Shown: piece after piece, positions 11,592 through 40,361 of the stretch | Numbering within the stretch: position 1 is the stretch's first letter | How the letters are laid out: each line of letters opens with the position of its first letter | Source of the DNA: a virus | IMG/VR virus record: IMGVR_UViG_3300045988_017739 | Location: 1 to 40,361 of that record | Length of the DNA: 40,361 nt | Reading direction: 5' to 3' (one strand) | Made by a program: the position numbers and the translations under genes | Notes under the pieces: generated by a model | What the model was told of the DNA's origin: nothing | Seen by the model: only the letters and a program-made list of their open reading frames with translations | The model's database searches: none

Positions 11592-11737
11592 GGTTTTTCC
11601 TCCTTGGAGAGCTACGGCACTTGGTATCGTGTTGCCTTACACGGGCTCTCTGCCCCTCTTTGTACACCGGGGGCTCGGTGTGATCTGGGTAAAGGATAGC
11701 AGCATCCCGGTCAGAAAAACGAACACGATTAGAAAAA

Positions 11738-11951
11738 CGTCAACCTGTCAACCATGTCAACCATGTCAACGCCGGTTCCCTGTAATCTCTCGCGGGCGCG
11801 CATCAAGCGTGTTCGCGCGGGTGTATTCTTCTTTTCTTCTCTTTCAGGTCTGGATATAGAATTTAAGTTGACATGGTTGACAACTGCCAAAAGCCGCACC
11901 GTTACACGCTTTTTCGTGTCAACAAAAAAGCGCCCCAGAGCATCTGAGGCG
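11738..11951 (+). repeat. Dispersed structured intergenic element, copy A
   Basis: GTCAAC at 11739, 11747, 11756, 11765 and 11918. GTTGAC at 11867 and 11876. Central hairpin 11791..11817, then the pyrimidine tract TTCTTCTTTTCTTC. It aligns over roughly 200 bp with copy C and shares its architecture with copy B. Confidence 0.85.
11924..11951 (-). terminator. Rho-independent terminator (minus strand) after the XRE gene; right edge of repeat copy A
   Basis: On the minus strand, CGCCTCAGA-tgc-TCTGGGGCG is followed by CTTTTTTGTT. The single non-Watson-Crick pair is G-U only on the minus-strand transcript. Confidence 0.65.
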
Positions 11952-11965
11952 CGGCAAAGAACATA

Positions 11966-12341: not shown

Positions 12342-12662
12342 ATGGAAATCAAAAACGTGCACTGCGAGAAGCAAGCACTGGAACTCTTCAGGATGATGCC
12401 GGACAACAAGAAGTCAGCTCTCCACAATGCGTTGAGCAGAAACCTTGAGTTTACCACTTCTTGGGGGCTGGAACTTGGCGAACTCCGCGCTTATGAGAAC
12501 GGTGTATACATCACTCTCCAAGGTACCCGCTGCAGCTTTTCCGTGTATGCAGAGTTGGTAAACGGAAATCCTGTTTTCAAGCGCAAGCCCCCTGAAAGCA
12601 AGCTCAACCTGAAATTCAGAAGCGGCCTGCTGTTCGATGCTGGAGATTTCAACGAATTCTAA
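12342..12662 (+). CDS. Hypothetical protein (accessory island gene 1)
   Basis: 106 aa with RBS GGAGGAAA 6 nt upstream. I recognise no motifs. Confidence 0.6.
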   Translation: MEIKNVHCEKQALELFRMMPDNKKSALHNALSRNLEFTTSWGLELGELRAYENGVYITLQGTRCSFSVYAELVNGNPVFKRKPPESKLNLKFRSGLLFDAGDFNEF

Positions 12663-12685
12663 ACAATATTGGAGGACTAAAAACC

Positions 12686-12928
12686 ATGAAAACCCTGAAC
12701 ATCACTTACGACACCACCGAGATCGAGGAGAACGGCAAGCCGATCACCGGCGAGACCTGCTGCAACCTGAAGCTGCGCGATGAGCTTGCGGACCAGCTGC
12801 TCCGCACCGGAAAGTGCGATCCTATCAGCATGATGCACATTGAGCTGGTGCTGCAGGGCGTGGAACTGCTGCAGGGCCGGAAGATCGTACTGGACAGCAT
12901 CAAGCACTTTGAACTGGTAAAGGAGTAA
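12686..12928 (+). CDS. Hypothetical small acidic protein (island gene 2)
   Basis: 80 aa with RBS TTGGAGGA. Confidence 0.6.
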   Translation: MKTLNITYDTTEIEENGKPITGETCCNLKLRDELADQLLRTGKCDPISMMHIELVLQGVELLQGRKIVLDSIKHFELVKE

Positions 12929-12942
12929 GGGAGGACGAGACC

Positions 12943-13344
12943 ATGTTTGAGATCACCGACACCGAGAAGCTGAGAGATGCTTACACCCTGCTGGCATTCA
13001 TCCGGGATGACGTTCCCACCACCACCGCCGAGCAGAAGTCCGGCTTGGCCGCCTTTATGGTCAGCCTCAAGAAGGAGATCCGGGCTTACAACCACCGCCC
13101 GGCACCTGACAGCCGCATTGTCGAGGAGCGCGGCATTGATGGCTACATTGAGCTGGTGCGGCTCCCGGACGAGCTGGACGACCTCAACGAGGACGATGCC
13201 GCCGAGTGGTTTCAGGCAAATCGCTACTATGAGTTTCGCCCCACATACTATGACTGTTCTGGTCAGCGCTTCACAAACTGGTACAAGCTGCACCGCCGCT
13301 GTGGGCACTGGTTCGCATATCATTCGGTCAGCTTTGATGTGTGA
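12943..13344 (+). CDS. Hypothetical protein (island gene 3)
   Basis: 133 aa with RBS AAGGGAGGA. The C-terminus is YYDCSGQRFTNWYKLHRRCGHWFAYHSVSFDV. Confidence 0.6.
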   Translation: MFEITDTEKLRDAYTLLAFIRDDVPTTTAEQKSGLAAFMVSLKKEIRAYNHRPAPDSRIVEERGIDGYIELVRLPDELDDLNEDDAAEWFQANRYYEFRPTYYDCSGQRFTNWYKLHRRCGHWFAYHSVSFDV

Positions 13345-13364
13345 TCAAAAAGGAGGACAAAATC

Positions 13365-13586
13365 ATGAAAACCAGCACCTTCAACCGCATTTTTGAGAAT
13401 GCCCGCACTGTGAACATCCAGAGCAACGAGTGGTTTAACTATGCCGGGTTCTTCTGGATGCAATGCACTGAGAAGCAGCTGGCTCAAATGCGGATGCTGC
13501 TTAAAGCGCAGAACTGCAAGACGACCATGAAGAACGGCGAAGAATGGTACATTCTGAACAGCGGAACGCTGATCAAAGTCCACTAA
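13365..13586 (+). CDS. Hypothetical protein (island gene 4)
   Basis: 73 aa starting MKTSTFNRIF at ATG 13365, after AAAGGAGGA. The ORF-track start at 13341 lacks an RBS. Confidence 0.55.
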   Translation: MKTSTFNRIFENARTVNIQSNEWFNYAGFFWMQCTEKQLAQMRMLLKAQNCKTTMKNGEEWYILNSGTLIKVH

Positions 13587-13598
13587 GGAGGTTTTACT

Positions 13599-14045
13599 AT
13601 GAGCGAGAGCACAAAGAAGATCCGCTGCGCAGCGGTCATCACCAACAATCTTGGGCAGCTGCTGGTGCTCCAGCAGGGCGATATCTACCGGCTGCCTTCC
13701 CGTGAGATCAAGTACACTCAGAACACGAACGAGTGCATAGAAGCCGCGCTGCGGGAGGTGCAGGAGAGTTGCCAGATCCGCGGGGTGCAGGTGGATGTGG
13801 CCACCGGGCTGCTTGAGCTGGATCCCGAAAAGAGCCTGCTGCTGGTGTTCGGCTGGATCACCGAAACGCCGGAGCTGCCTCCGAGCAGCACGCCGGACAG
13901 CGAGCCGCGCCCCGTCTGGCTTGCAAAGAAGAAAGAGCAGCAGTTGACGGCAAACCTGTGGAACGTCTACAGTCACCCCACAGATCTGGCGCTGTCCATA
14001 GCGCTGATGCAGCGCAGTCAGCTGGATATGATGAACGCACAATAA
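13599..14045 (+). CDS. Nudix-like hydrolase with a degenerate Nudix box (island gene 5)
   Basis: 148 aa with RBS AAGGAGG. The segment LPSREIKYTQNTNECIEAALREVQESCQI has the spacing of GX5EX7REUXEEXGU, but with S for G, ES for EE and C for G. Confidence 0.4.
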   Translation: MSESTKKIRCAAVITNNLGQLLVLQQGDIYRLPSREIKYTQNTNECIEAALREVQESCQIRGVQVDVATGLLELDPEKSLLLVFGWITETPELPPSSTPDSEPRPVWLAKKKEQQLTANLWNVYSHPTDLALSIALMQRSQLDMMNAQ

Positions 14046-19801: not shown

Positions 19802-20887
19802 TCATTTTCGGATGCGCTTTTCAATGCTTGCACTGAAGGGCGGGATATGGATCAGCGGCCCGGCGCACACCTCCCGGAGCCATTCCGGTGCTGCACCGTA
19901 CCACAGCAGCTGACTGGGGTGCAGGGTATTCAGAACGTACTCCACCTCTTCCCGCAGCTGACTGACCCGGTGCTTTTTGTTCATGTCGCTGACGCTTGAC
20001 ATACAGATCGGCGCGTTGGCGGGGATCCCGTCCAGCGCCCATGCTGCCAGATCCTCCCGGTAGATCACATAGGGCACAACGCGGATCCCGCATTCCTGCC
20101 AGTACGCCGCGCACCACATTTTGCGGTAATGGTTGTAGAGGTTCAGCGCGCCCGGCCAGTCCCCGTACTGTGAGAAGTCCGGGGCGATCACATAGTCAAA
20201 CCGGGACAGCAGATCCAGATACCTGTCCGGGGATGCCCAGACCCGTTCAAACTGGTAATCGTCTAGAAAGAAGTGCAGCCCCTTCCCGGCGGGTGCTGTC
20301 TCGGTGAGTGCGTAATTGAACCCCTCCCACACGATGCCGTCCGGCACGGGCTCCACAGGTGCCATTGCCGGGATGCCGTAGGGGCTGGCGCTGTCGAACA
20401 CAGAGATCTGGGTGTTCTGCCAGCTGCGTTCTGCCTTGTATGGCCGGTCACGTTCCAGCGGATCCTCCTCGGCCTCGGGCTCCGGTTCTTCGGGCTGCAG
20501 CGGGGTCAATAGATCCACCGGCAAACCAAACTTTGCGGGGTCAAAGGTCAGCTGTGCCAGCTCTGCAGACAGCACCGGCAGATCCCACTCGGCCACCTCG
20601 CTGGTGCTGTTGTCTGCGATGCGCAGTTCTTTGGCCTGCTCCGGGGTCAGCTCTGCAGCCACGATCACAGGCACGGTGGACAGCCGCAGCCGCTTTGCTG
20701 CCTTGTACCGGGTATGCCCGGCGATAATCACGCCGTCTCTGTCTACGATGATCGGGCTCTGAAAACCATACTCCCGGATGCTGTTGGCTACCGCGGTCAC
20801 CGCCTTGTCGTTTTTCCGCGGATTCTTCTGGTACGGCTTAATGTCAGCCAGTTTACGATATTCAAGCGCATGATCTGCACAGCGCAT
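19802..20887 (-). CDS. ParB N-terminal domain protein with a DUF4417-like C-terminal domain
   Basis: Preferred start is MRCADHALEY at ATG 20887, after GGGAGGTG. ...IKPYQKNPRKNDKAVTAVANSIREYGFQSPIIVDRDGVIIAGHTRYKAAKRL... is a classic ParB/Srx-fold N-terminal domain. Confidence 0.7.
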   Translation of the reverse strand: MRCADHALEYRKLADIKPYQKNPRKNDKAVTAVANSIREYGFQSPIIVDRDGVIIAGHTRYKAAKRLRLSTVPVIVAAELTPEQAKELRIADNSTSEVAEWDLPVLSAELAQLTFDPAKFGLPVDLLTPLQPEEPEPEAEEDPLERDRPYKAERSWQNTQISVFDSASPYGIPAMAPVEPVPDGIVWEGFNYALTETAPAGKGLHFFLDDYQFERVWASPDRYLDLLSRFDYVIAPDFSQYGDWPGALNLYNHYRKMWCAAYWQECGIRVVPYVIYREDLAAWALDGIPANAPICMSSVSDMNKKHRVSQLREEVEYVLNTLHPSQLLWYGAAPEWLREVCAGPLIHIPPFSASIEKRIRK

Positions 20888-20954
20888 AGAAAAACACCTC
20901 CCGCGGTAATCTATTTTCAAGACTACCGCAAGAGGTGCTTCCGAAACGAACAGG

Positions 20955-22931: not shown

Positions 22932-22957
22932 TTTGTACTCCTTTACTCGATCCGGCT

Positions 22958-23293
22958 GTCAACCAAACCCGAAAATTTGAAGTTGACGGGAAAAATGCAG
23001 CAGTGGAGCCACTTTTCCGGCATCTGTCAACGTTGTCAACCAAAATGTCTTATATACCCTCGCGGGCACAAGCATACAAGCGTGTGCGCCCTATGCGTGT
23101 GCTTGTTTTCTTCTTTTCTACTTCTTCTAGTAGATTTTATAGTTGACAATGTTGACAGAACCAGAAAAACGGCTTGATTGCTTGCTTTTCAGCGTCAACC
23201 AGTTTGTCAACCAAACGAAAACGCCCGGTTGACAACGTTAACGGATTGCTTGTTTTCTTCGGTTCTTGGGGAAATTCCGCTTTTTACGTTGAC
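22958..23293 (+). repeat. Dispersed structured intergenic element, copy B (expanded)
   Basis: GTCAAC at 22958, 23026, 23035, 23194 and 23206. GTTGAC at 22982, 23142, 23151, 23228 and 23288. CCTCGCGGGC core, hairpin 23068..23106, then TTTTCTTCTTTTCT. Confidence 0.8.
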
Positions 23294-23571: not shown

Positions 23572-25992
23572 CTACTCCTCTCTGACCCATACCCGCTGCG
23601 TACCATAGGGGCCGCAGCGGCGGCTGTTCTTCAGGTTTACCCACCCGGAGATATTTGCCAGCACCGCGGAAATGCGCTTGGACTGCTGCCGGTCAAGTTC
23701 CCTGCCGGTGCGGTCGATGCACTCCCGCCAGATCTCGTTGACGCATACGCTGGTGCGTTGCACCGTGTTTTCCGCGCTCTGACCGGAGGTCTCCCAGTAG
23801 CAGATCCGCTGGTCAATGTCGCGCTTCATCCAGTCTGCGGGCACCGGGCGGCTCAAAAAGTCCTCGATCTGACCCTCCCACGGGTCACGTTCCATGTGCG
23901 CCTGCTGCTCTGCCACGGCAGCCGCCAGCAGGTCATCCCGCAGGATCAGCTCCTCACCCTGCTGGTAGCGTGCAACGGCTTCAGCCCAGATCTGATCTAC
24001 CTCTGCAGGGGTCAGATCGTCATGCACCAGCTTCGTCCGGCGCTCAAAACTGCAATCTATGGGCCAGTAACGGCGGTTTCCTGTGGCGTCCCGCAGGAAG
24101 TCGGTGCTATTGGAGGTGCCGAAAAACACACAACGGCGGGGATACTGCACCGTTCTTCGGCCATAAGCCGCCCGGTATCTGTCCTCGGTCTGGCTCAGAA
24201 ATTGCTTGGCGGCTTCGCTCTCAGAGCGGGAAAAAGCGGTCATCTCGCCCAGCTCTACGATCCAGACGCCGCGCAGATTTTCGCGCGCTTCCTTGCCGTC
24301 AAAGCTGGTGATACTGTCGTTGAACCAGTCCCGCCCCAGACGGGAGAGCAGCAGGCTTTTGCCGATGCCCTGCTTGCCGCTCAGAATGCAGATCTGGTCA
24401 AACTTGCACCCCGGACGGAAGCAACGCGCCACGGCAGCCACCAGCATTTTGCGGGTGACGGCGCGAGTGTAGCTGTTGTCCTCGGCGCCCAGATAGTCGA
24501 TGAACAGCGTATCCAGCCGCTCTTTGCCGTCCCACTTCAGCCCGGACAGATAGCTGCGCACCGGATCCTTGGCGTGGCGGCTGCCGGTCAGGGCTACCGC
24601 GTCCGCTGCCTTGGCGGTACCGCTGAAGTGGTAGACCGTTTCCAGATACCAGCGCACACCGGCGTCATCCTCGTCAGCCCAGTCCCGTTCACCGTCACGC
24701 CCCGGCCACGGGAACGGACCGGCACACCGCAGACGATCCGCAAAAGTGTCCTGCCAGATCCTGCCCTTCAGCACCGGGTCGTTCTCAAGGATCACCCACG
24801 CGTTCTGCGTGGTGCACGCCAGCGCGCCCTTCTGGGTGCGGACCAGCTGCTTCTGCCAGTCCTCGGCATCGTCCGCGGCCTTTTCCGGCTCCTGCCGGGG
24901 GTCATCCTCTACCGGGGAGAACCCGGACAGCGCGTTTTTAACGGTCTCGTCCCGCAGCCGCGCCGCAGTCGGGCCGTCACTCTCGGCCAGCGTGCGCATC
25001 TGCTGCCAGCTGGGCAGGGAGGCTGTGGGGGTGCCGGGGGTCACGTCTGTATCGAGATCTCCGAAGCGGTGGATGCGCACCAGATCCCACGCGTTCAGCA
25101 GCTTGCCCCCGGCGGGATCCGTGCTGTGGTGGCTGTAAATAAAGTGATCATCATCATACAGCACAGCGCCCGCGGTGGTGCTGCCCAGCGCATAGGTCAG
25201 GCGCCCGGGGCTGGCGTCCACATAGACGCCCGGCAAAAACTTCTCGATCGCTGCCGGAATGTCGTATTCCCGGCAGAAAGCGCCCACGGCGCCGCCTTTG
25301 GCTGTGGGATCGGCCTGCTTGCCGCCGGGCAGCGTGACCGTCTCAGAGGGGCAGGTGGGCCACTGCCGCACGTCATGCCAGTCCAGATAGGCGTCCAGCA
25401 GCTCCGACACGGCAATGCGCTCACCGTCCGGGGTGTACTCGCACACCCACTTGCTGTCTGCGCTGCGGCTGGGCCAGTACATCAGGCGCTCGTTTTCAAA
25501 GGTGGTGCGGTCAAAGACCACCATTTCGGGATCCAGCATCTGCGCCAGCATCCGGGCGCAGGGCTGGTACTCCTCCGGCTGCATCACGCGATCCGTAGGG
25601 AAGATTGCCCGCAGCCGGGGGTGCTCCGGGTCGTGCTTCCGTGTGGAGTAGACAGCTGCCGTGCCCATGGCCTTAATGGCAGCCACCCACTGCTCCGTGC
25701 TGCCGGGTGCACAGTTGTCCATATCCAGCGTGATCAGGCTGCGCCCGGTGCAGCAGCCGCGGCGGCGTAGGCCGTCCCGCAGGCTGCCGCCCACAAAGCC
25801 GCCCACGTCCTTGCGCCTGTCCTGTTCAGCCTTTGGCAGTGCCATGTACTCTGCGTGGGTCTCGGCGCCACAGTTGCGATCCATCCGGGTTGAGAGGGTA
25901 GCGGTAAAGCCTTTCCAGCTCAGTTCATGCAGTTCCCACTCGGTTTCTGCTCGGCTGCCGCCCACGCATAGCATAATCGGTGTAGCGCTCAT
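23572..25992 (-). CDS. DNA primase-polymerase / helicase (VirE-type, P4/D5-like NTPase)
   Basis: 806 aa. The N-terminal part has an acidic motif LITLDMDNC. Walker A is LSGKQGIGKS and Walker B-like is VWIVELGEM. Confidence 0.8.
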   Translation of the reverse strand: MSATPIMLCVGGSRAETEWELHELSWKGFTATLSTRMDRNCGAETHAEYMALPKAEQDRRKDVGGFVGGSLRDGLRRRGCCTGRSLITLDMDNCAPGSTEQWVAAIKAMGTAAVYSTRKHDPEHPRLRAIFPTDRVMQPEEYQPCARMLAQMLDPEMVVFDRTTFENERLMYWPSRSADSKWVCEYTPDGERIAVSELLDAYLDWHDVRQWPTCPSETVTLPGGKQADPTAKGGAVGAFCREYDIPAAIEKFLPGVYVDASPGRLTYALGSTTAGAVLYDDDHFIYSHHSTDPAGGKLLNAWDLVRIHRFGDLDTDVTPGTPTASLPSWQQMRTLAESDGPTAARLRDETVKNALSGFSPVEDDPRQEPEKAADDAEDWQKQLVRTQKGALACTTQNAWVILENDPVLKGRIWQDTFADRLRCAGPFPWPGRDGERDWADEDDAGVRWYLETVYHFSGTAKAADAVALTGSRHAKDPVRSYLSGLKWDGKERLDTLFIDYLGAEDNSYTRAVTRKMLVAAVARCFRPGCKFDQICILSGKQGIGKSLLLSRLGRDWFNDSITSFDGKEARENLRGVWIVELGEMTAFSRSESEAAKQFLSQTEDRYRAAYGRRTVQYPRRCVFFGTSNSTDFLRDATGNRRYWPIDCSFERRTKLVHDDLTPAEVDQIWAEAVARYQQGEELILRDDLLAAAVAEQQAHMERDPWEGQIEDFLSRPVPADWMKRDIDQRICYWETSGQSAENTVQRTSVCVNEIWRECIDRTGRELDRQQSKRISAVLANISGWVNLKNSRRCGPYGTQRVWVREE

Positions 25993-31980: not shown

Positions 31981-32087
31981 AGTATAGCTTCTCCGTTTCC
32001 AAAAGTCAAGCACTTTTTCGCGCAATACGCGACAAAAGTCTGAACGGCACAGAAAAAAGTTGCAAATTTGCGATTTTGCATTATAAT
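31981..32087. promoter_or_regulatory. Lysogeny switch: divergent promoters and a palindromic operator candidate
   Basis: Leftward promoter is TTGACT (rc of 32004..32009), a 17-nt spacer, then TATACT (rc of 31981..31986). Rightward promoter is TTGCAA (32060..32065), a 16-nt spacer, then TATAAT (32082..32087). Palindrome TCGCG-caata-CGCGA is at 32018..32032. Confidence 0.65.
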
Positions 32088-32109
32088 AGAGGAGAGAGGA
32101 GGCGGTACA

Positions 32110-32895
32110 ATGACGATTGGCAACAGGATCCGGGACAAAAGAATGGCCCTCGGCTTGTCCGTAGACGATCTCGCTGCAATGCTGGGCAAAAACCGGGCAA
32201 CGGTCTATCGTTATGAAAACGGCAATATTGAAAACCTGCCCATCGGCGTGCTGGAGCCTTTGGCTCATGCCCTGCAGACAACACCGGGCTACCTGATCGG
32301 CTGGACAGAGGATGATTACGACTGGGATCGGGATCTGGACAACCGACTGGCTGCCGTGGCGGGGGATCGCTGGGAAGAGCTGGTAAAGCAAAACCACGGA
32401 GATAAGGCAGCCGCGTGGAAGGACTGGAAAAACATCGAGCGCGATCAGGCCGCAGAGGCCGCCAGAAGCAGCGCGCTGCCTGCTGGCGCTACACTGTTCA
32501 ATCCTCAGCAGGTCGCTCCGCTGCTCGGATCCGTCCGGGCAGGGCTGCCGATGTACGTTGAAGAAAACATTGAAGGATACCTGCCCATCATGCAGACCGA
32601 TGGGGCGCGCTACTTCTGGCTGACAGTACGCGGGGACAGCATGACCGCCGCCGGGCTGAATGACGGTGATCAGATCCTTGTCAGAGAGCAGCCCGAAGTG
32701 GAAAACGGACAGCTTGCGGTGGTCATGGTGAATGGCGATGAGGCTACGGTAAAGTATTTCCGGCAGGAGGGCAATCTGGTTATCCTGACGCCCAAAAGCT
32801 TCAATCCTGTGCACCAGCCGCAGATCTATGATCTGAAGCACATTCCGGTCCGGGTGGCGGGGCTGGTGGTAGAGTGCAGAAAAACGTTCAGGTGA
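32110..32895 (+). CDS. cI-like repressor (XRE HTH plus LexA/S24 autopeptidase domain)
   Basis: MTIGNRIRDKRMALGLSVDDLAAMLGKNRATVYRYENG is an HTH. The C-terminal part has VRGDSM (Ser) and ...ATVKYF (Lys). ATG 32110 follows GGAGAGAGGAGG. The ORF-track start at 32068 falls inside the promoter. Confidence 0.85.
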   Translation: MTIGNRIRDKRMALGLSVDDLAAMLGKNRATVYRYENGNIENLPIGVLEPLAHALQTTPGYLIGWTEDDYDWDRDLDNRLAAVAGDRWEELVKQNHGDKAAAWKDWKNIERDQAAEAARSSALPAGATLFNPQQVAPLLGSVRAGLPMYVEENIEGYLPIMQTDGARYFWLTVRGDSMTAAGLNDGDQILVREQPEVENGQLAVVMVNGDEATVKYFRQEGNLVILTPKSFNPVHQPQIYDLKHIPVRVAGLVVECRKTFR

Positions 32896-33171: not shown

Positions 33172-33173
33172 GC

Positions 33174-33421
33174 GTCAACCTGTCAACCATGTCAACGCCA
33201 GATCGTTATTACCCCTCGCGGGCGCGCTTCAAGAATTTCCCCGCGGGTGTATATTCTTCTTTTCTTCCTTTTTAGGTCTGGATATAGAACCTATGTTGAC
33301 ACAGTTGACAGAATACCGAAAAGCCGCATCACTGCTGAACTTCTACCGCGTCAACCGGCTTTGGCGGGTCAGTTGACAAAAGCAAAAGAAAAACGCCCCC
33401 AGTGTTGGTGCACTAGGAGCG
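33174..33421 (+). repeat. Dispersed structured intergenic element, copy C
   Basis: GTCAAC at 33174, 33182, 33191 and 33350. GTTGAC at 33295, 33304 and 33372. Hairpin 33215..33247, then TTCTTCTTTTCTTC. A minus-strand terminator-like hairpin lies at 33394..33421. Confidence 0.85.
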
Positions 33422-33521
33422 TTTGCAATCAGTCTGCCCTTGGCGGGGCGTACAGACCTACACAGCTGTATTGTACCACCACAGGACAGGCTTGTCAAAG
33501 TGTACCTATGGAGGTGTGTAC

Positions 33522-39881: not shown

Positions 39882-40361
39882 TTAGGCAAATTGGATTTTT
39901 CGGGTAGCGAGAAGTGCGGATCCGTCAGAAGCGCACAAAAGGGAGCCATCGGTCAGGGTGACATGATACTGCACCTCGCCGGTGATCAGCATATTGTGTA
40001 GCCATGCCATCATATCGCCGGATGCTTTTGCATCAGCGGGGGCGCTGTCCATGGACAGGGTTTTGTCCGTGCCCGCCTTCGTGCCGGCTTCTGCTGCAGC
40101 CTTCTTTGCCGCGGCTTCGCTGGCAGCTGCCGCACTTTGCGAGGCTGCCGCTGCCTTCTGGCTGGATGCTGCTGCGCTGGCACTCCCGGACGCGCTGGAC
40201 GCACTGGAGGCTGCTGCGCTCTGGCTGTCTGCAGCTGCCTTCTGACTGGATGCTGCGGCGCTGGCACTGTTGGCGGCCGCGCTCTGGCTTCTGGATGCTG
40301 CATTGGCACTGTTGGCAGCGGCGCTCTGGCTGGCTGCTGCCGCCCTCTGGCTGGCTGCTGC
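39882..40361 (-). CDS. Tail fibre protein, 3' part (continuation of 617..1 across the circular junction)
   Basis: The frame is open from the window end to TAA (rc of 39882..39884). My translation is AAASQRAAAASQSAAANSANAASRSQSAAANSASAAASSQKAAADSQSAAASS...AAKKAAAEAGTKAGTDKTLSMDSAPADAKASGDMMAWLHNMLITGEVQYHVTLTDGSLLCASDGSALLATRKIQFA. It is in phase with the left-edge ORF once the 38-nt overlap is collapsed, giving 1,059 nt or 352 aa in total. Confidence 0.75.
   Translation of the reverse strand, partial: AAASQRAAAASQSAAANSANAASRSQSAAANSASAAASSQKAAADSQSAAASSASSASGSASAAASSQKAAAASQSAAAASEAAAKKAAAEAGTKAGTDKTLSMDSAPADAKASGDMMAWLHNMLITGEVQYHVTLTDGSLLCASDGSALLATRKIQFA

Follow-up and report, generated by a model that had tools for sequence, protein, structure and literature searches.

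Dispersed TGTCAAC iteron elements as candidate replication origin sites of a VapE-family primase-helicase in a temperate gut phage

The window analyzed here, a stretch of 40,361 nucleotides (IMG/VR record IMGVR_UViG_3300045988_017739), contains three dispersed copies (A, B, and C) of an intergenic element built from TGTCAAC iterons. We consider copy B to be, with a probability of about 0.7, the lytic replication origin of this gut phage, and A and C to be paralogous origin-type sites for the same initiator. The protein that binds TGTCAAC would be the VapE-family primase-helicase encoded beside copy B, acting through the wing of its C-terminal winged-helix domain. Since a blastn comparison of the A and B regions to the GenBank phages in INPHARED produced no match, the phage does not correspond to a described isolate.

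Architecture and genomic context of the three copies

Both strands taken together, the window contains 44 GTCAAC/GTTGAC sites, compared to 16.3 ± 3.75 expected from 100 dinucleotide shuffles (shuffle maximum of 25). More than half of them (24 of the 44) fall in three clusters, A (7 sites, 11739 to 11923), B (10 sites, 22958 to 23293), and C (7 sites, 33174 to 33377), which cover ca. 2% of the window, where about one site would be expected. A previous sequence-only reading had noticed this clustering of 24 hexamers, in line with the enrichment over shuffled sequence, and had described three copies in the same orientation with a single architecture, which is also what we found. The distance from the start of the left iteron pair to the start of the right pair, put earlier at about 111 to 116 bp, measures 112 bp in A, 117 bp in B, and 114 bp in C. 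Each copy has the motif YCTCGCGGGC exactly 17 nt past its last left iteron, and the three have in common the sequence TTCTTTTCT, part of a longer pyrimidine tract (TTCTTCTTTTCT). The inverted iteron pairs flank cores of 95 to 101 bp, the right halves of which (26 to 30% GC, versus 58.8% for the genome) are among the lowest-GC stretches in the window, and each copy has its own GC-rich, hairpin-prone stretch of alternating purines and pyrimidines. These inverted pairs could pass for TIRs. The similarity between A and C had been described as almost base for base over roughly 200 bp, which was overstated, as 78% of ca. 147 aligned columns are identical, a value that drops to 67% when the full spans are compared. 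The suspicion that the copies might be assembly duplications can be discarded, because they differ from one another and the same three recur in several independent IMG/VR contigs.

Copy B is the most elaborate. Its Unit 1 (23025 to 23157, plus strand) consists of the left iteron pair TGTCAACGTTGTCAAC (23025 to 23040), a core (23041 to 23141) with the TATATACC box, CCTCGCGGGC, the GC-rich hairpin-prone stretch, the pyrimidine tract, and a right half of 26% GC, and the right inverted pair GTTGACAATGTTGACA (23142 to 23157). Of all 40-nt segments in the window, the one with the lowest GC (0.25) is found within this unit. A gap of ca. 36 bp separates it from Unit 2 on the VapE side (23194 to 23293), with GTCAAC at 23194 and 23206 (plus strand) and GTTGAC at 23228 and 23288 (minus strand), and two outlying iterons are located on the VRR-NUC side (22957 to 22987), namely TGTCAAC at 22957 to 22963 on the plus strand and GTTGAC at 22982 to 22987 on the minus strand. 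Unit 1 of copy A (11738 to 11882, plus strand) has four left iterons (GTCAAC at 11739, 11747, 11756, and 11765, plus strand), a core (11771 to 11866) with an AT-rich right half of 30% GC (11822 to 11865), and the right inverted pair GTTGACATGGTTGACA (11867 to 11882). As described before, TGTCAACCATGTCAAC (11755 to 11770) and its exact reverse complement (11867 to 11882) stand on either side of this core. The right flank of A (11883 to 11951, plus strand) comprises a spacer homologous to the one between Units 1 and 2 of the putative origin, one iteron (TGTCAAC, 11917 to 11923), and, at the right edge, the minus-strand terminator of the HTH gene (11930 to 11952). Finally, Unit 1 of copy C (33173 to 33310, plus strand) has three left iterons (GTCAAC at 33174, 33182, and 33191, plus strand), a core (33197 to 33294) with a right half of 30% GC, and the right inverted pair GTTGACACAGTTGACA (33295 to 33310), followed by further iterons between 33350 and 33377 (GTCAAC at 33350 to 33355, plus strand; GTTGAC at 33372 to 33377, minus strand). 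A full Unit 2 is missing from both A and C, a point against reading these two as origins.

Identification of the neighboring genes showed that all three copies are located at genuine module boundaries, as had been proposed. Copy A has the scaffold gene (PF06810) on one side and the HTH gene plus a plus-strand island on the other, B is flanked by the VRR-NUC homologue and VapE, and C is flanked by a cI-like repressor operon (HTH_3 and Peptidase_S24) and the integrase. Only copy B is immediately downstream of the putative initiator gene, with 279 bp between its outermost iteron (23293) and the end of the VapE gene (23572), whereas A is found 11.6 kb below the 3' end of that gene and C 7.2 kb above its 5' end.

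Such positions might be expected of operator or activator arrays with a promoter, by which a phage transcription factor bound to TGTCAAC would switch on or insulate the boundary operons (middle or late control, stoperator-like). Copy A is upstream of the scaffold-capsid operon and B of the operon that runs from VRR-NUC through terminase, and in a single relative (L020) a TGTCAAC composite is located directly upstream of terS. TATA-like boxes appear 8 to 17 nt inside both arrays, and the −35 consensus is contained in GTTGACA. However, in agreement with the earlier reading, a sigma-70-type promoter was found inside none of the three copies, and the TATA-like boxes are not at a constant distance from the arrays. 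The VRR-NUC start codon of phiCDKH02 and L014 is located ca. 25 to 30 nt past the outer iteron, too close to accommodate a promoter. Copy C has the opposite orientation relative to its local genes. Insulation, which had also been suggested, or promoter activity may be a side effect, but relatives without copy A have an unchanged leader of the scaffold gene right after the upstream terminator. Moreover, the iteron type co-varies with the wing of VapE (see below) and with no regulator. The only other protein common to the window and phiCDKH02, a Cro-like HTH, has no sites in its own intergenic region and was rejected as a second shared DNA-binding protein. Altogether, we give little credence to transcriptional control as the function of the arrays.

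A related proposal, that of stoperator-like repressor sites, fared no better. In cluster A mycobacteriophages, the immunity repressor binds 20 to 30 stoperators per genome, which are single sites that follow the direction of transcription and also form the operator of the repressor gene; the L5 site contains TGTCAAG. The window resembles these phages in having a short asymmetric motif at several intergenic places of a temperate phage, but the sites are gathered in three arrays with inverted pairs, in both orientations, and co-vary with a replication protein. None is found in the cI-cro region; GTCAAC sites are absent between 31234 and 33174, an interval that covers the repressor gene (32068 to 32895) together with its upstream intergenic region. 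Centromere-like sites for the ParB-domain protein had been suggested as well. Homologues of the ParB_N-DUF4417 gene (19802 to 20920) were detected only in close relatives, and the element is present in phages without that protein; one of them is phiCDKH02, which has neither a ParB_N-DUF4417 homologue nor any ParB-annotated gene in the 50 kb examined.

A small RNA or a plus-strand intrinsic terminator, formed by TATA box, hairpin, and U-rich tract, appears very improbable. Copy A does fold better on the plus than on the minus strand (−29.7 versus −13.1 kcal/mol, z = −3.0), copy B looks terminator-like on the plus strand (a 13-bp stem followed by TTTCTTCTTT), and C comes after the plus-strand cI operon. 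Against this, folding of B is comparable on both strands (−27.0 versus −25.3 kcal/mol, z = −3.2 versus −3.3), C folds no better than its shuffles (z = −0.7), and the whole window has zero Rfam matches. There is no plus-strand transcript at A to terminate, and the cores of A and C gave no terminator-like call. The cores of AT-rich relatives are symmetric. RNAalifold recovered neither a common structure nor compensatory pairs from 13 homologous cores. The hairpin reported for the conserved core therefore holds as a hairpin-prone stretch in each copy and not as a shared fold. Promoters, RNA genes, and centromeres were accordingly rejected as the identity of the elements.

The putative initiator and similarities to known origins

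The VapE-family gene (23572 to 25992, minus strand) codes for a protein of 806 amino acids with the VapE-like domain at residues 482 to 700. It matches Pfam PF05272 (E = 1.6e-84), with only a subthreshold match to DUF5906, and PDB 7pds, the PriRep5 protein of SaPI5 (E = 1e-86 with the single sequence and 1.7e-124 with a profile). The alignment to PriRep5 begins at the helicase N-domain and takes in the C-terminal domain, in which the predicted winged helix occupies ca. residues 745 to 806 (coding part 23575 to 23760, minus strand). Judging from these similarities, the initiator is a homologue of PriRep5 and not a P4-type D5 protein. We infer that it acts both as initiator and as self-loading SF3-type helicase, and its last ca. 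25 residues (the wing, ...RRC-G-PYGTQRVWVREE) would be the part that reads the iterons.

In SaPIs, the ori is found immediately downstream of rep and has 6 to 12 short iterons and an AT-rich center, with at least two iterons on each side in opposite directions that are read by the C-terminal winged helix (PMC9371898). The window presents much the same picture: the initiator gene is followed on its 3' side by copy B, the numbers of iterons are 7 in A, 10 in B, and 7 in C, each AT-rich center has at least two iterons per side in opposite directions, and specificity would likewise reside in the C-terminal winged helix of a VapE-family initiator-helicase. There are also differences. SaPIs are satellite islands and have been described with one ori, while the genome here is that of a complete temperate phage with three dispersed copies. 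Its iterons, repeated every 9 bp, are heptamers of the TGTNNNN family, and the main group of them is accompanied by another (Unit 2).

The best precedent, by analogy, for a small replicon with iteron regions at separate places would be the ori and crr of phage P4. Both are bound by the alpha primase-helicase, a D5_N/Pox_D5-type protein with a C-terminal winged-helix origin-binding domain, and the P4 iteron (TGTTCACC), which also begins with TGT, is found in two separate cis regions several kilobases apart. The window similarly has one iteron (TGTCAAC) in separate cis regions, and copy A switches along with the origin (see below). The number of regions is three instead of two, the initiator is of the VapE type (PF05272) and not D5_N/Pox_D5, and A and C keep the entire unit of iterons, AT-rich stretch, and iterons, unlike crr, which has no full ori-like core. 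Besides, the existence of relatives without A or C speaks against a strict cis requirement for a second region. Thus, two of the roles formerly listed as candidates are favored by our analysis, iteron-like arrays for a phage DNA-binding protein, most likely VapE, and ori/crr-type sites for the primase-helicase, with the correction that the latter, which had been called P4-like, resembles PriRep5 and not a P4-type D5 protein. A looser analogy is found in viruses with SF3 helicases, the origins of which (the GAGGC pentamers of SV40 large T and the papillomavirus E1 sites) assemble two helicase rings. Inverted pairs of short sites beside an AT-rich tract are common to both, but the origin-binding domains are unrelated, and those are eukaryotic viruses with a single origin each.

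Homology to PriRep5 and the covariation described below are consistent with binding, melting, and initiation by VapE at the copies. With respect to transcription, the gene comes shortly before copy B, and the wing of its product would recognize the TGTCAAC heptamers. Facing iteron pairs on either side of the ca. 100-bp core could position two helicase assemblies around its AT-rich half (26 to 30% GC in a genome of 59% GC), which would melt as the helicase loads itself, after which the primase part of VapE would begin synthesis. Copies A and C, which match B in their iterons, inverted arrangement, spacing, and core, would load the same protein and might act as secondary origins or as cis partners of the main origin, like P4 crr.

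Distribution in other phages and covariation of iterons and wing

The co-occurrence of the element with a particular gene, proposed earlier as a check, was borne out. Unit 1 is found between VapE and VRR-NUC in 22 to 25 loci, and the composite of Unit 1, spacer, and Unit 2 at this position in phages that span 28 to 63% GC. More generally, among ca. 80 diverse VapE loci, a lineage-specific TGTNNNN heptamer appears in 5 to 12 copies in the 650 bp 3' of VapE, and Clostridium tetani phage phiCT453A and Staphylococcus aureus phage 47 have an equivalent layout with other iterons. In the L010 lineage only, TGTCAAC composites also accompany a D5_N/Pox_D5 primase-helicase without detectable similarity to VapE, which, like the composite beside terS in L020, counts against our reading. 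A scan with the core alone (CTCGCGGGC-N25-55-TTCTTTTCT) gave mostly chance matches and no relatives with other iterons, and the matches in L039, Polyangiaceae, and Cenarchaeum were dismissed as chance palindrome patterns or unrelated repeats.

The covariation signal could be obtained only by comparing nearly identical pairs of proteins; with plain mutual information, columns of high entropy dominated. In VapE pairs with different iterons and a body divergence of 1.2 to 4.7%, residues 778 to 803 diverge by 27 to 50%, versus 0 to 8% in pairs of equal body divergence that have the same iteron. At the DNA level, divergence is confined to the last ca. 100 codons of VapE and the iteron arrays, with VRR-NUC and SNF2 remaining 93 to 100% identical. 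This statistical (not biochemical) evidence suggests that the iteron sequence is specific to its cognate initiator. In principle, the joint divergence of wing and iterons, which are adjacent on the DNA, could reflect a recombination hot spot instead of recognition, but L063 and L083 differ by single-base iteron changes in a conserved backbone, which argues for recognition. No simple code from residue to base emerged; at residue 798 of the wing, 8 of 11 TGTCAAC-type proteins have R but the VapE of the window has T, and at a resolution of 30 to 50 residues no block separates TGTCAAC-type VapE from that of phiCT453A. Judged by its TGT end, the iteron of the TGTATGC and TGTAGTC relatives is reversed with respect to the core, which makes the iteron register uncertain, and we draw no conclusion as to head-to-head or tail-to-tail loading.

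Orthologous A copies in relatives bear the iteron type of their own genome (TGTCAAC, TGTATGC, or TGTAGTC). Those that share contigs with TGTATGC-type origins carry TGTATG(C/T), and TGTAGTC-type A copies also exist. Across iteron types, A-type cores are 0.72 to 0.83 similar, compared to 0.61 to 0.66 between each of them and the B core of its own genome, indicating that the iterons were changed in place. That copy A kept its core while its iterons switched with those of the origin suggests that VapE binding at A has been maintained, though some relatives are without A or C.

These patterns also bear on whether A and C are functionless duplicates of the origin, decaying or selfish, that arose by illegitimate recombination or MITE-like spread, B being the only copy that matters. 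Presence is certainly polymorphic. L238 has no copy A, a point against the need for it, and C was found only in the five closest relatives and is missing from 75 of 80 phages with a related integrase. The lack of a full Unit 2 in both copies and their tolerant intergenic locations, directly past terminators, also fit with decay. Three complete reference phages that carry this module have one cluster each, so the extra copies are not needed for such replication, and the window would have one primary origin and two extra origin-like sites. On the other hand, the position of A is occupied across lineages with scaffold proteins only 41 to 44% identical, and its orthologous cores have iterons switched to match their own origin, which is not expected from neutral decay. 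Furthermore, both A and C retain their iteron pairs at the usual spacing, an intact pyrimidine tract, and YCTCGCGGGC at its 17-nt distance. As for a MITE-like insertion, which had been among the earlier candidates, the one comparison of a filled (L212) with an empty (L238) site showed no target-site duplication. We therefore regard functionless duplication as unlikely and favor A and C as secondary origins or P4-crr-like sites.

Implications for phage replication

We propose a concrete and testable origin for a replication module (DUF2800, DUF2815-type SSB, PolA, VapE, VRR-NUC, and SNF2) that is very common in Bacillota phages. In the searchable literature, we found no described origin for this module and no paper uniting VRR-NUC, VirE, SNF2, and an origin, and whole-word searches for TGTCAAC and GTTGACA retrieved nothing relevant. 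The finding would extend the PriRep scheme of SaPIs to full phages. Three co-evolving origin-type sites are unusual in a 40-kb temperate phage, and P4 ori/crr is, to our knowledge, the only close precedent.

A more speculative, although possible, extension is a multi-origin replicon. Its three complete loading sites for one primase-helicase would have stayed at the same module boundaries while specificity changed at least three times, and the code formed by the ca. 25-residue wing and TGTNNNN would be rewritten rapidly and at all copies together. In that case, initiator loading might also be coupled by the extra sites to the expression or recombination of adjacent modules. If they fire, the phage would be a small natural model of multi-origin control. 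The VapE wing and the TGTNNNN heptamer would form a compact specificity pair of protein and DNA, for which over 20 natural variants and near-isogenic pairs are available. It might lend itself to the study or engineering of origin specificity, as well as of replication incompatibility between phages and satellites or between phages.

Three iteron clusters at module boundaries

Counting both strands, the window contains 44 GTCAAC sites, compared with 16.3 ± 3.75 expected from dinucleotide-preserving shuffles (maximum of 25), and 24 of these sites are concentrated in cluster A (positions 11739 to 11923, 7 sites), cluster B (22958 to 23293, 10 sites), and cluster C (33174 to 33377, 7 sites), confirming the dense clustering noticed in the sequence-only reading. 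The three stretches also matched its description when the sequences were re-read. Their common unit consists of two to four TGTCAAC heptamers (iterons) with a 9-bp period, a core of 95 to 101 bp, and an inverted GTTGACA-N2-GTTGACA pair. All three contain YCTCGCGGGC, offset by exactly 17 nt from the last left heptamer, and the pyrimidine tract TTCTTCTTTTCT. The right halves of the cores (26 to 30% GC versus 58.8% for the genome) are among the regions of lowest GC content in the window. Copies A and C had been described as aligning almost base for base, but their identity is lower (78% over ~147 columns and 67% over the full spans). Within the window, the full composite of two iteron groups (Unit 1 and Unit 2) is found in copy B, and A and C consist of Unit 1 with one or two additional sites. 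Since several independent contigs carry the three copies as well, these are not assembly artifacts.

Nucleotides 1 to 38 are identical to nucleotides 40324 to 40361, and the window is thus a circularly closed assembly of ~40.3 kb; this overlap sits within a 21/42-nt periodic, GCTGC-rich coding repeat (about 40117 to 40361 and 4 to 59). The minus strand carries nearly all of the genes. The location of the copies at module boundaries was backed by Pfam and homology assignments of the boundary genes (scaffold and capsid; an HTH gene and a plus-strand island; a VRR-NUC homologue and VapE; a cI-like repressor and the integrase). The island beside copy A (12342 to 14045, plus strand) comprises five small opposite-strand genes with no Pfam match that break the head-morphogenesis genes; its equivalent in other lineages carries an Amidoligase_2 gene (L011, 3581 to 4561; L002, 1822 to 2820), and the position has the appearance of a conserved hot spot for insertions. 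Genes for a ParB_N-DUF4417 fusion protein (19802 to 20920, minus strand) and a papain-fold glutamine deamidase (PF15644; 19118 to 19780, minus strand), both found only in close relatives, lie between those for the SNF2 helicase and the terminase region.

A promoter or operator is a weak explanation for these elements. As the sequence-only reading had already noted, none of the three copies has a sigma-70 match; besides, the spacing between array and TATA box is not constant, AT-rich phages leave no space for a promoter ahead of VRR-NUC, and copy C is oriented against its neighboring genes. The scaffold-gene leader stays the same where copy A is absent. This leader of ~140 nt (11592 to 11737) contains the hairpin CACACCGAGCCCCCGGTGT, has homologues in four relatives (L212, L220, L232, and L238), and may be a structured 5' UTR. 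Near copy C, a near-consensus minus-strand promoter (33498 to 33470; TTGACA-17-TACAAT with TG, 11/12, directed leftwards) is followed by a terminator with a 14-bp stem (33424 to 33391, minus strand), which suggests a possible small transcript of ~75 nt between the integrase start and copy C (33385 to 33498, minus strand). The elements themselves could be read as RNA genes or terminators, given that plus-strand folding is clearly better than minus-strand folding for A and that B has a terminator-like score, but each signal is restricted to that one copy. For B the two strands fold similarly, C folds no better than shuffles, Rfam gave no match, and no structure was common to 13 homologous cores. 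Two other proposed roles were not supported: stoperator-like repressor sites, since none of the GTCAAC sites is near the cI-cro region, and a ParB centromere, given the restriction of the ParB_N-DUF4417 protein to close relatives.

A conserved layout with lineage-specific repeats

The element is present in related phages. When IMG/VR was scanned for the double inverted pair, 39 loci were found, some of them close relatives that share the three cores of the window and others phages of 28 to 63% GC with quite different inner sequences. The outer plan was shared: in Unit 1, an iteron pair, a hairpin-prone, AT-rich core of ~100 bp, and an inverted pair; then, after a spacer of ~35 bp, Unit 2 with an iteron pair, ~15 bp, and an inverted pair. 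Where a locus is AT-rich, its GTCAAC sites are all confined to this single cluster. The B-type copy is always located between the VapE/VirE-family primase-helicase gene and the VRR-NUC and SNF2 genes, within a module of DUF2800, Enc34-type SSB, PolA, VapE, VRR-NUC, and SNF2. Clostridioides phage phiCDKH02, to which one locus is 99% identical, has just one cluster, at this position (50 kb examined of the 56-kb record). The same module is present in two annotated phages, phiCT453A (Clostridium tetani) and Staphylococcus aureus phage 47, that have no TGTCAAC cluster but conserve layout and place with the repeats GGGTACA and GGGAACA in the former and TGATGCAACA in the latter. At one locus (L020), the element sits upstream of terS. 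The exact pattern was also found in species-representative genomes, with hosts including Ruminiclostridium, Clostridium magnum, Veillonella, Anaerovibrio, and further Clostridia and Bacillota. Matches of the palindromic search pattern at five places in one Polyangiaceae MAG (L269 to L272 and L279) and in a tandem array of a Cenarchaeum MAG contig (L276) are probably unrelated repeat families.

The core center of AT-rich clostridial and staphylococcal phages has a conserved inverted repeat, ATTAGGC...GCCTAAT (TTAGRGG...CCYCTAA), at L042 (15585 to 15710), L040 (13091 to 13220), L041 (42030 to 42075), L004, L006, L007, and L035. It is retained despite differing outer iterons, e.g., in phiCDKH02 versus phiCT453A, and could serve as a second recognition element. 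In its place, the window copies show an alternating purine/pyrimidine stretch that is rich in GC. At locus L014 (3797 to 3900), the iteron array is expanded upstream of Unit 2 by four additional direct TGTCAACaaagt repeats, recurring every ~21 bp.

In 80 further VapE loci (L043 to L122), we surveyed 650 bp on the 3' side of the gene. Nearly all had 5 to 12 copies of a lineage-specific TGTNNNN heptamer, with more than 20 different heptamers arrayed at this one position (TGTCAAC, TGTAAAC, TGTAACA, TGTCTAC, TGTCCAC, TGTTAAC, TGTATGC, TGTTCCG, TGTTTCC, TGTTGCC, TGTTAGA, and TGTAAGA, among others). A lineage-variable repeat at a fixed position and in a fixed layout is the pattern expected of a replication origin whose iterons are specific to its initiator.

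The VapE wing and the iterons

The 806-amino-acid product of the gene adjoining copy B (23572 to 25992, minus strand) contains a VapE-like domain (PF05272; E = 1.6e-84). Its one match among solved structures was 7pds (E = 1e-86), and a profile of ten VapE proteins aligned with this structure through the C-terminal domain (E = 1.7e-124). The deposition, a 477-residue chain in six copies, is titled only "Similar to D. nodosus vapE"; we take it to be SaPI5 PriRep5, described in PMC9371898 as a self-loading initiator-helicase. According to that paper, the ori of SaPIs directly follows rep on its downstream side and has six to twelve iterons of five or six nucleotides, an AT-rich center, and at least two iterons in opposite directions on each side, which are read by a winged-helix domain within the C-terminal domain of the initiator. 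Copies A, B, and C match this description. Primase-helicases of the D5_N/Pox_D5 type include P4 alpha, which binds TGTTCACC via a C-terminal winged helix. Another lineage with this type of enzyme also has TGTCAAC composites, 3' of the operon, and the enzyme has no detectable similarity to VapE; by analogy, a related iteron reader is plausible there.

A coarse comparison showed no swapped VapE block tracking iteron type; TGTCAAC-type proteins are scattered over the VapE tree, and their nearest relatives have other iterons. The signal emerges among near-identical VapE pairs, in the wing of the C-terminal winged helix. Divergence in residues 40 to 744 and 778 to 803 was, respectively, 1.3% and 36% for L107/L114 (TGTTTAC/TGTTAAC), 1.9% and 50% for L096/L118 (TGTTAGA/TGTAACA), 2.0% and 50% for L092/L093 (TGTTAGA/TGTAAGA), and 4.7% and 27% for L063/L083 (TGTCAAC/TGTAAAC), versus 0 to 8% in residues 778 to 803 for same-iteron pairs of equal body divergence. 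At the DNA level, divergence in the near-identical pairs is limited to approximately the last 100 VapE codons and the iteron arrays, with the downstream VRR-NUC and SNF2 remaining 93 to 100% identical. Between L063 and L083, the intergenic backbone is conserved and every heptamer is changed at one identical base. In two independent association measures the highest-ranking column was the same and corresponds to residue 798 of the window protein, within the wing. A simple code linking residues to bases was not apparent. We conclude from this statistical evidence, to which linkage contributes because wing and iterons are adjacent, that the heptamer is probably read by the VapE wing.

Copies A and C and the proposed origin

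Close relatives (VapE 76 to 79% identical) have TGTATGC/T or TGTAGTC/TGTCTAC origin iterons, and their origins retain the purine/pyrimidine tract, GC-rich stretch, and TATA box of the core; how the heptamer is registered and oriented with respect to the core is uncertain. The scaffold-proximal copy of these relatives has the iteron of their own origin: ACATACA...TGTATGC in L212 (same contig as L043), GCATACA...GTATGC in L232 (same contig as L051), and two GACTACA followed by three TGTAGTC in L220. Because A-type cores are closer to each other across iteron types (0.72 to 0.83 identity) than to the B core of their own genome (0.61 to 0.66), copy A predates the specificity switches, its iterons having been altered in place and kept matched to the initiator. 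The main rival explanation for A and C, selfish or decaying duplicates, is at odds with this in-place switch, which is hard to explain unless there is selection for VapE binding at A.

Copy A is missing in L238, where the upstream terminator runs straight into the conserved scaffold leader, and probably also in L236 and L240, in which no iteron cluster was seen. The comparison of filled and empty sites (one comparison, L212 versus L238) showed no target duplication, and a MITE-like insertion, also suggested earlier, was not supported. Of 80 phages whose integrase is 77 to 99% identical, only the five closest relatives have copy C. Three complete reference phages have one cluster apiece, the L015/L019 contig has two full composites, and scaffold-position copies also appear in lineages whose scaffold proteins share only 41 to 44% identity.

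Among the roles initially proposed, iteron-like arrays acting as ori-type sites of the primase-helicase are supported by both the SaPI ori description and the wing-iteron covariation. With high probability, copy B would be the lytic origin of a PriRep-type replicon, and A and C would be origin-type loading sites for its initiator, kept in step with that protein; they may act as secondary origins or crr-like partners. The kind of system is already known from the SaPI ori and P4 ori/crr, but the setting is new and the three-copy form, a feature of the window, is unusual. A useful by-product is a natural specificity series of near-isogenic pairs, in which VapE wing and heptamer are the sole differences.
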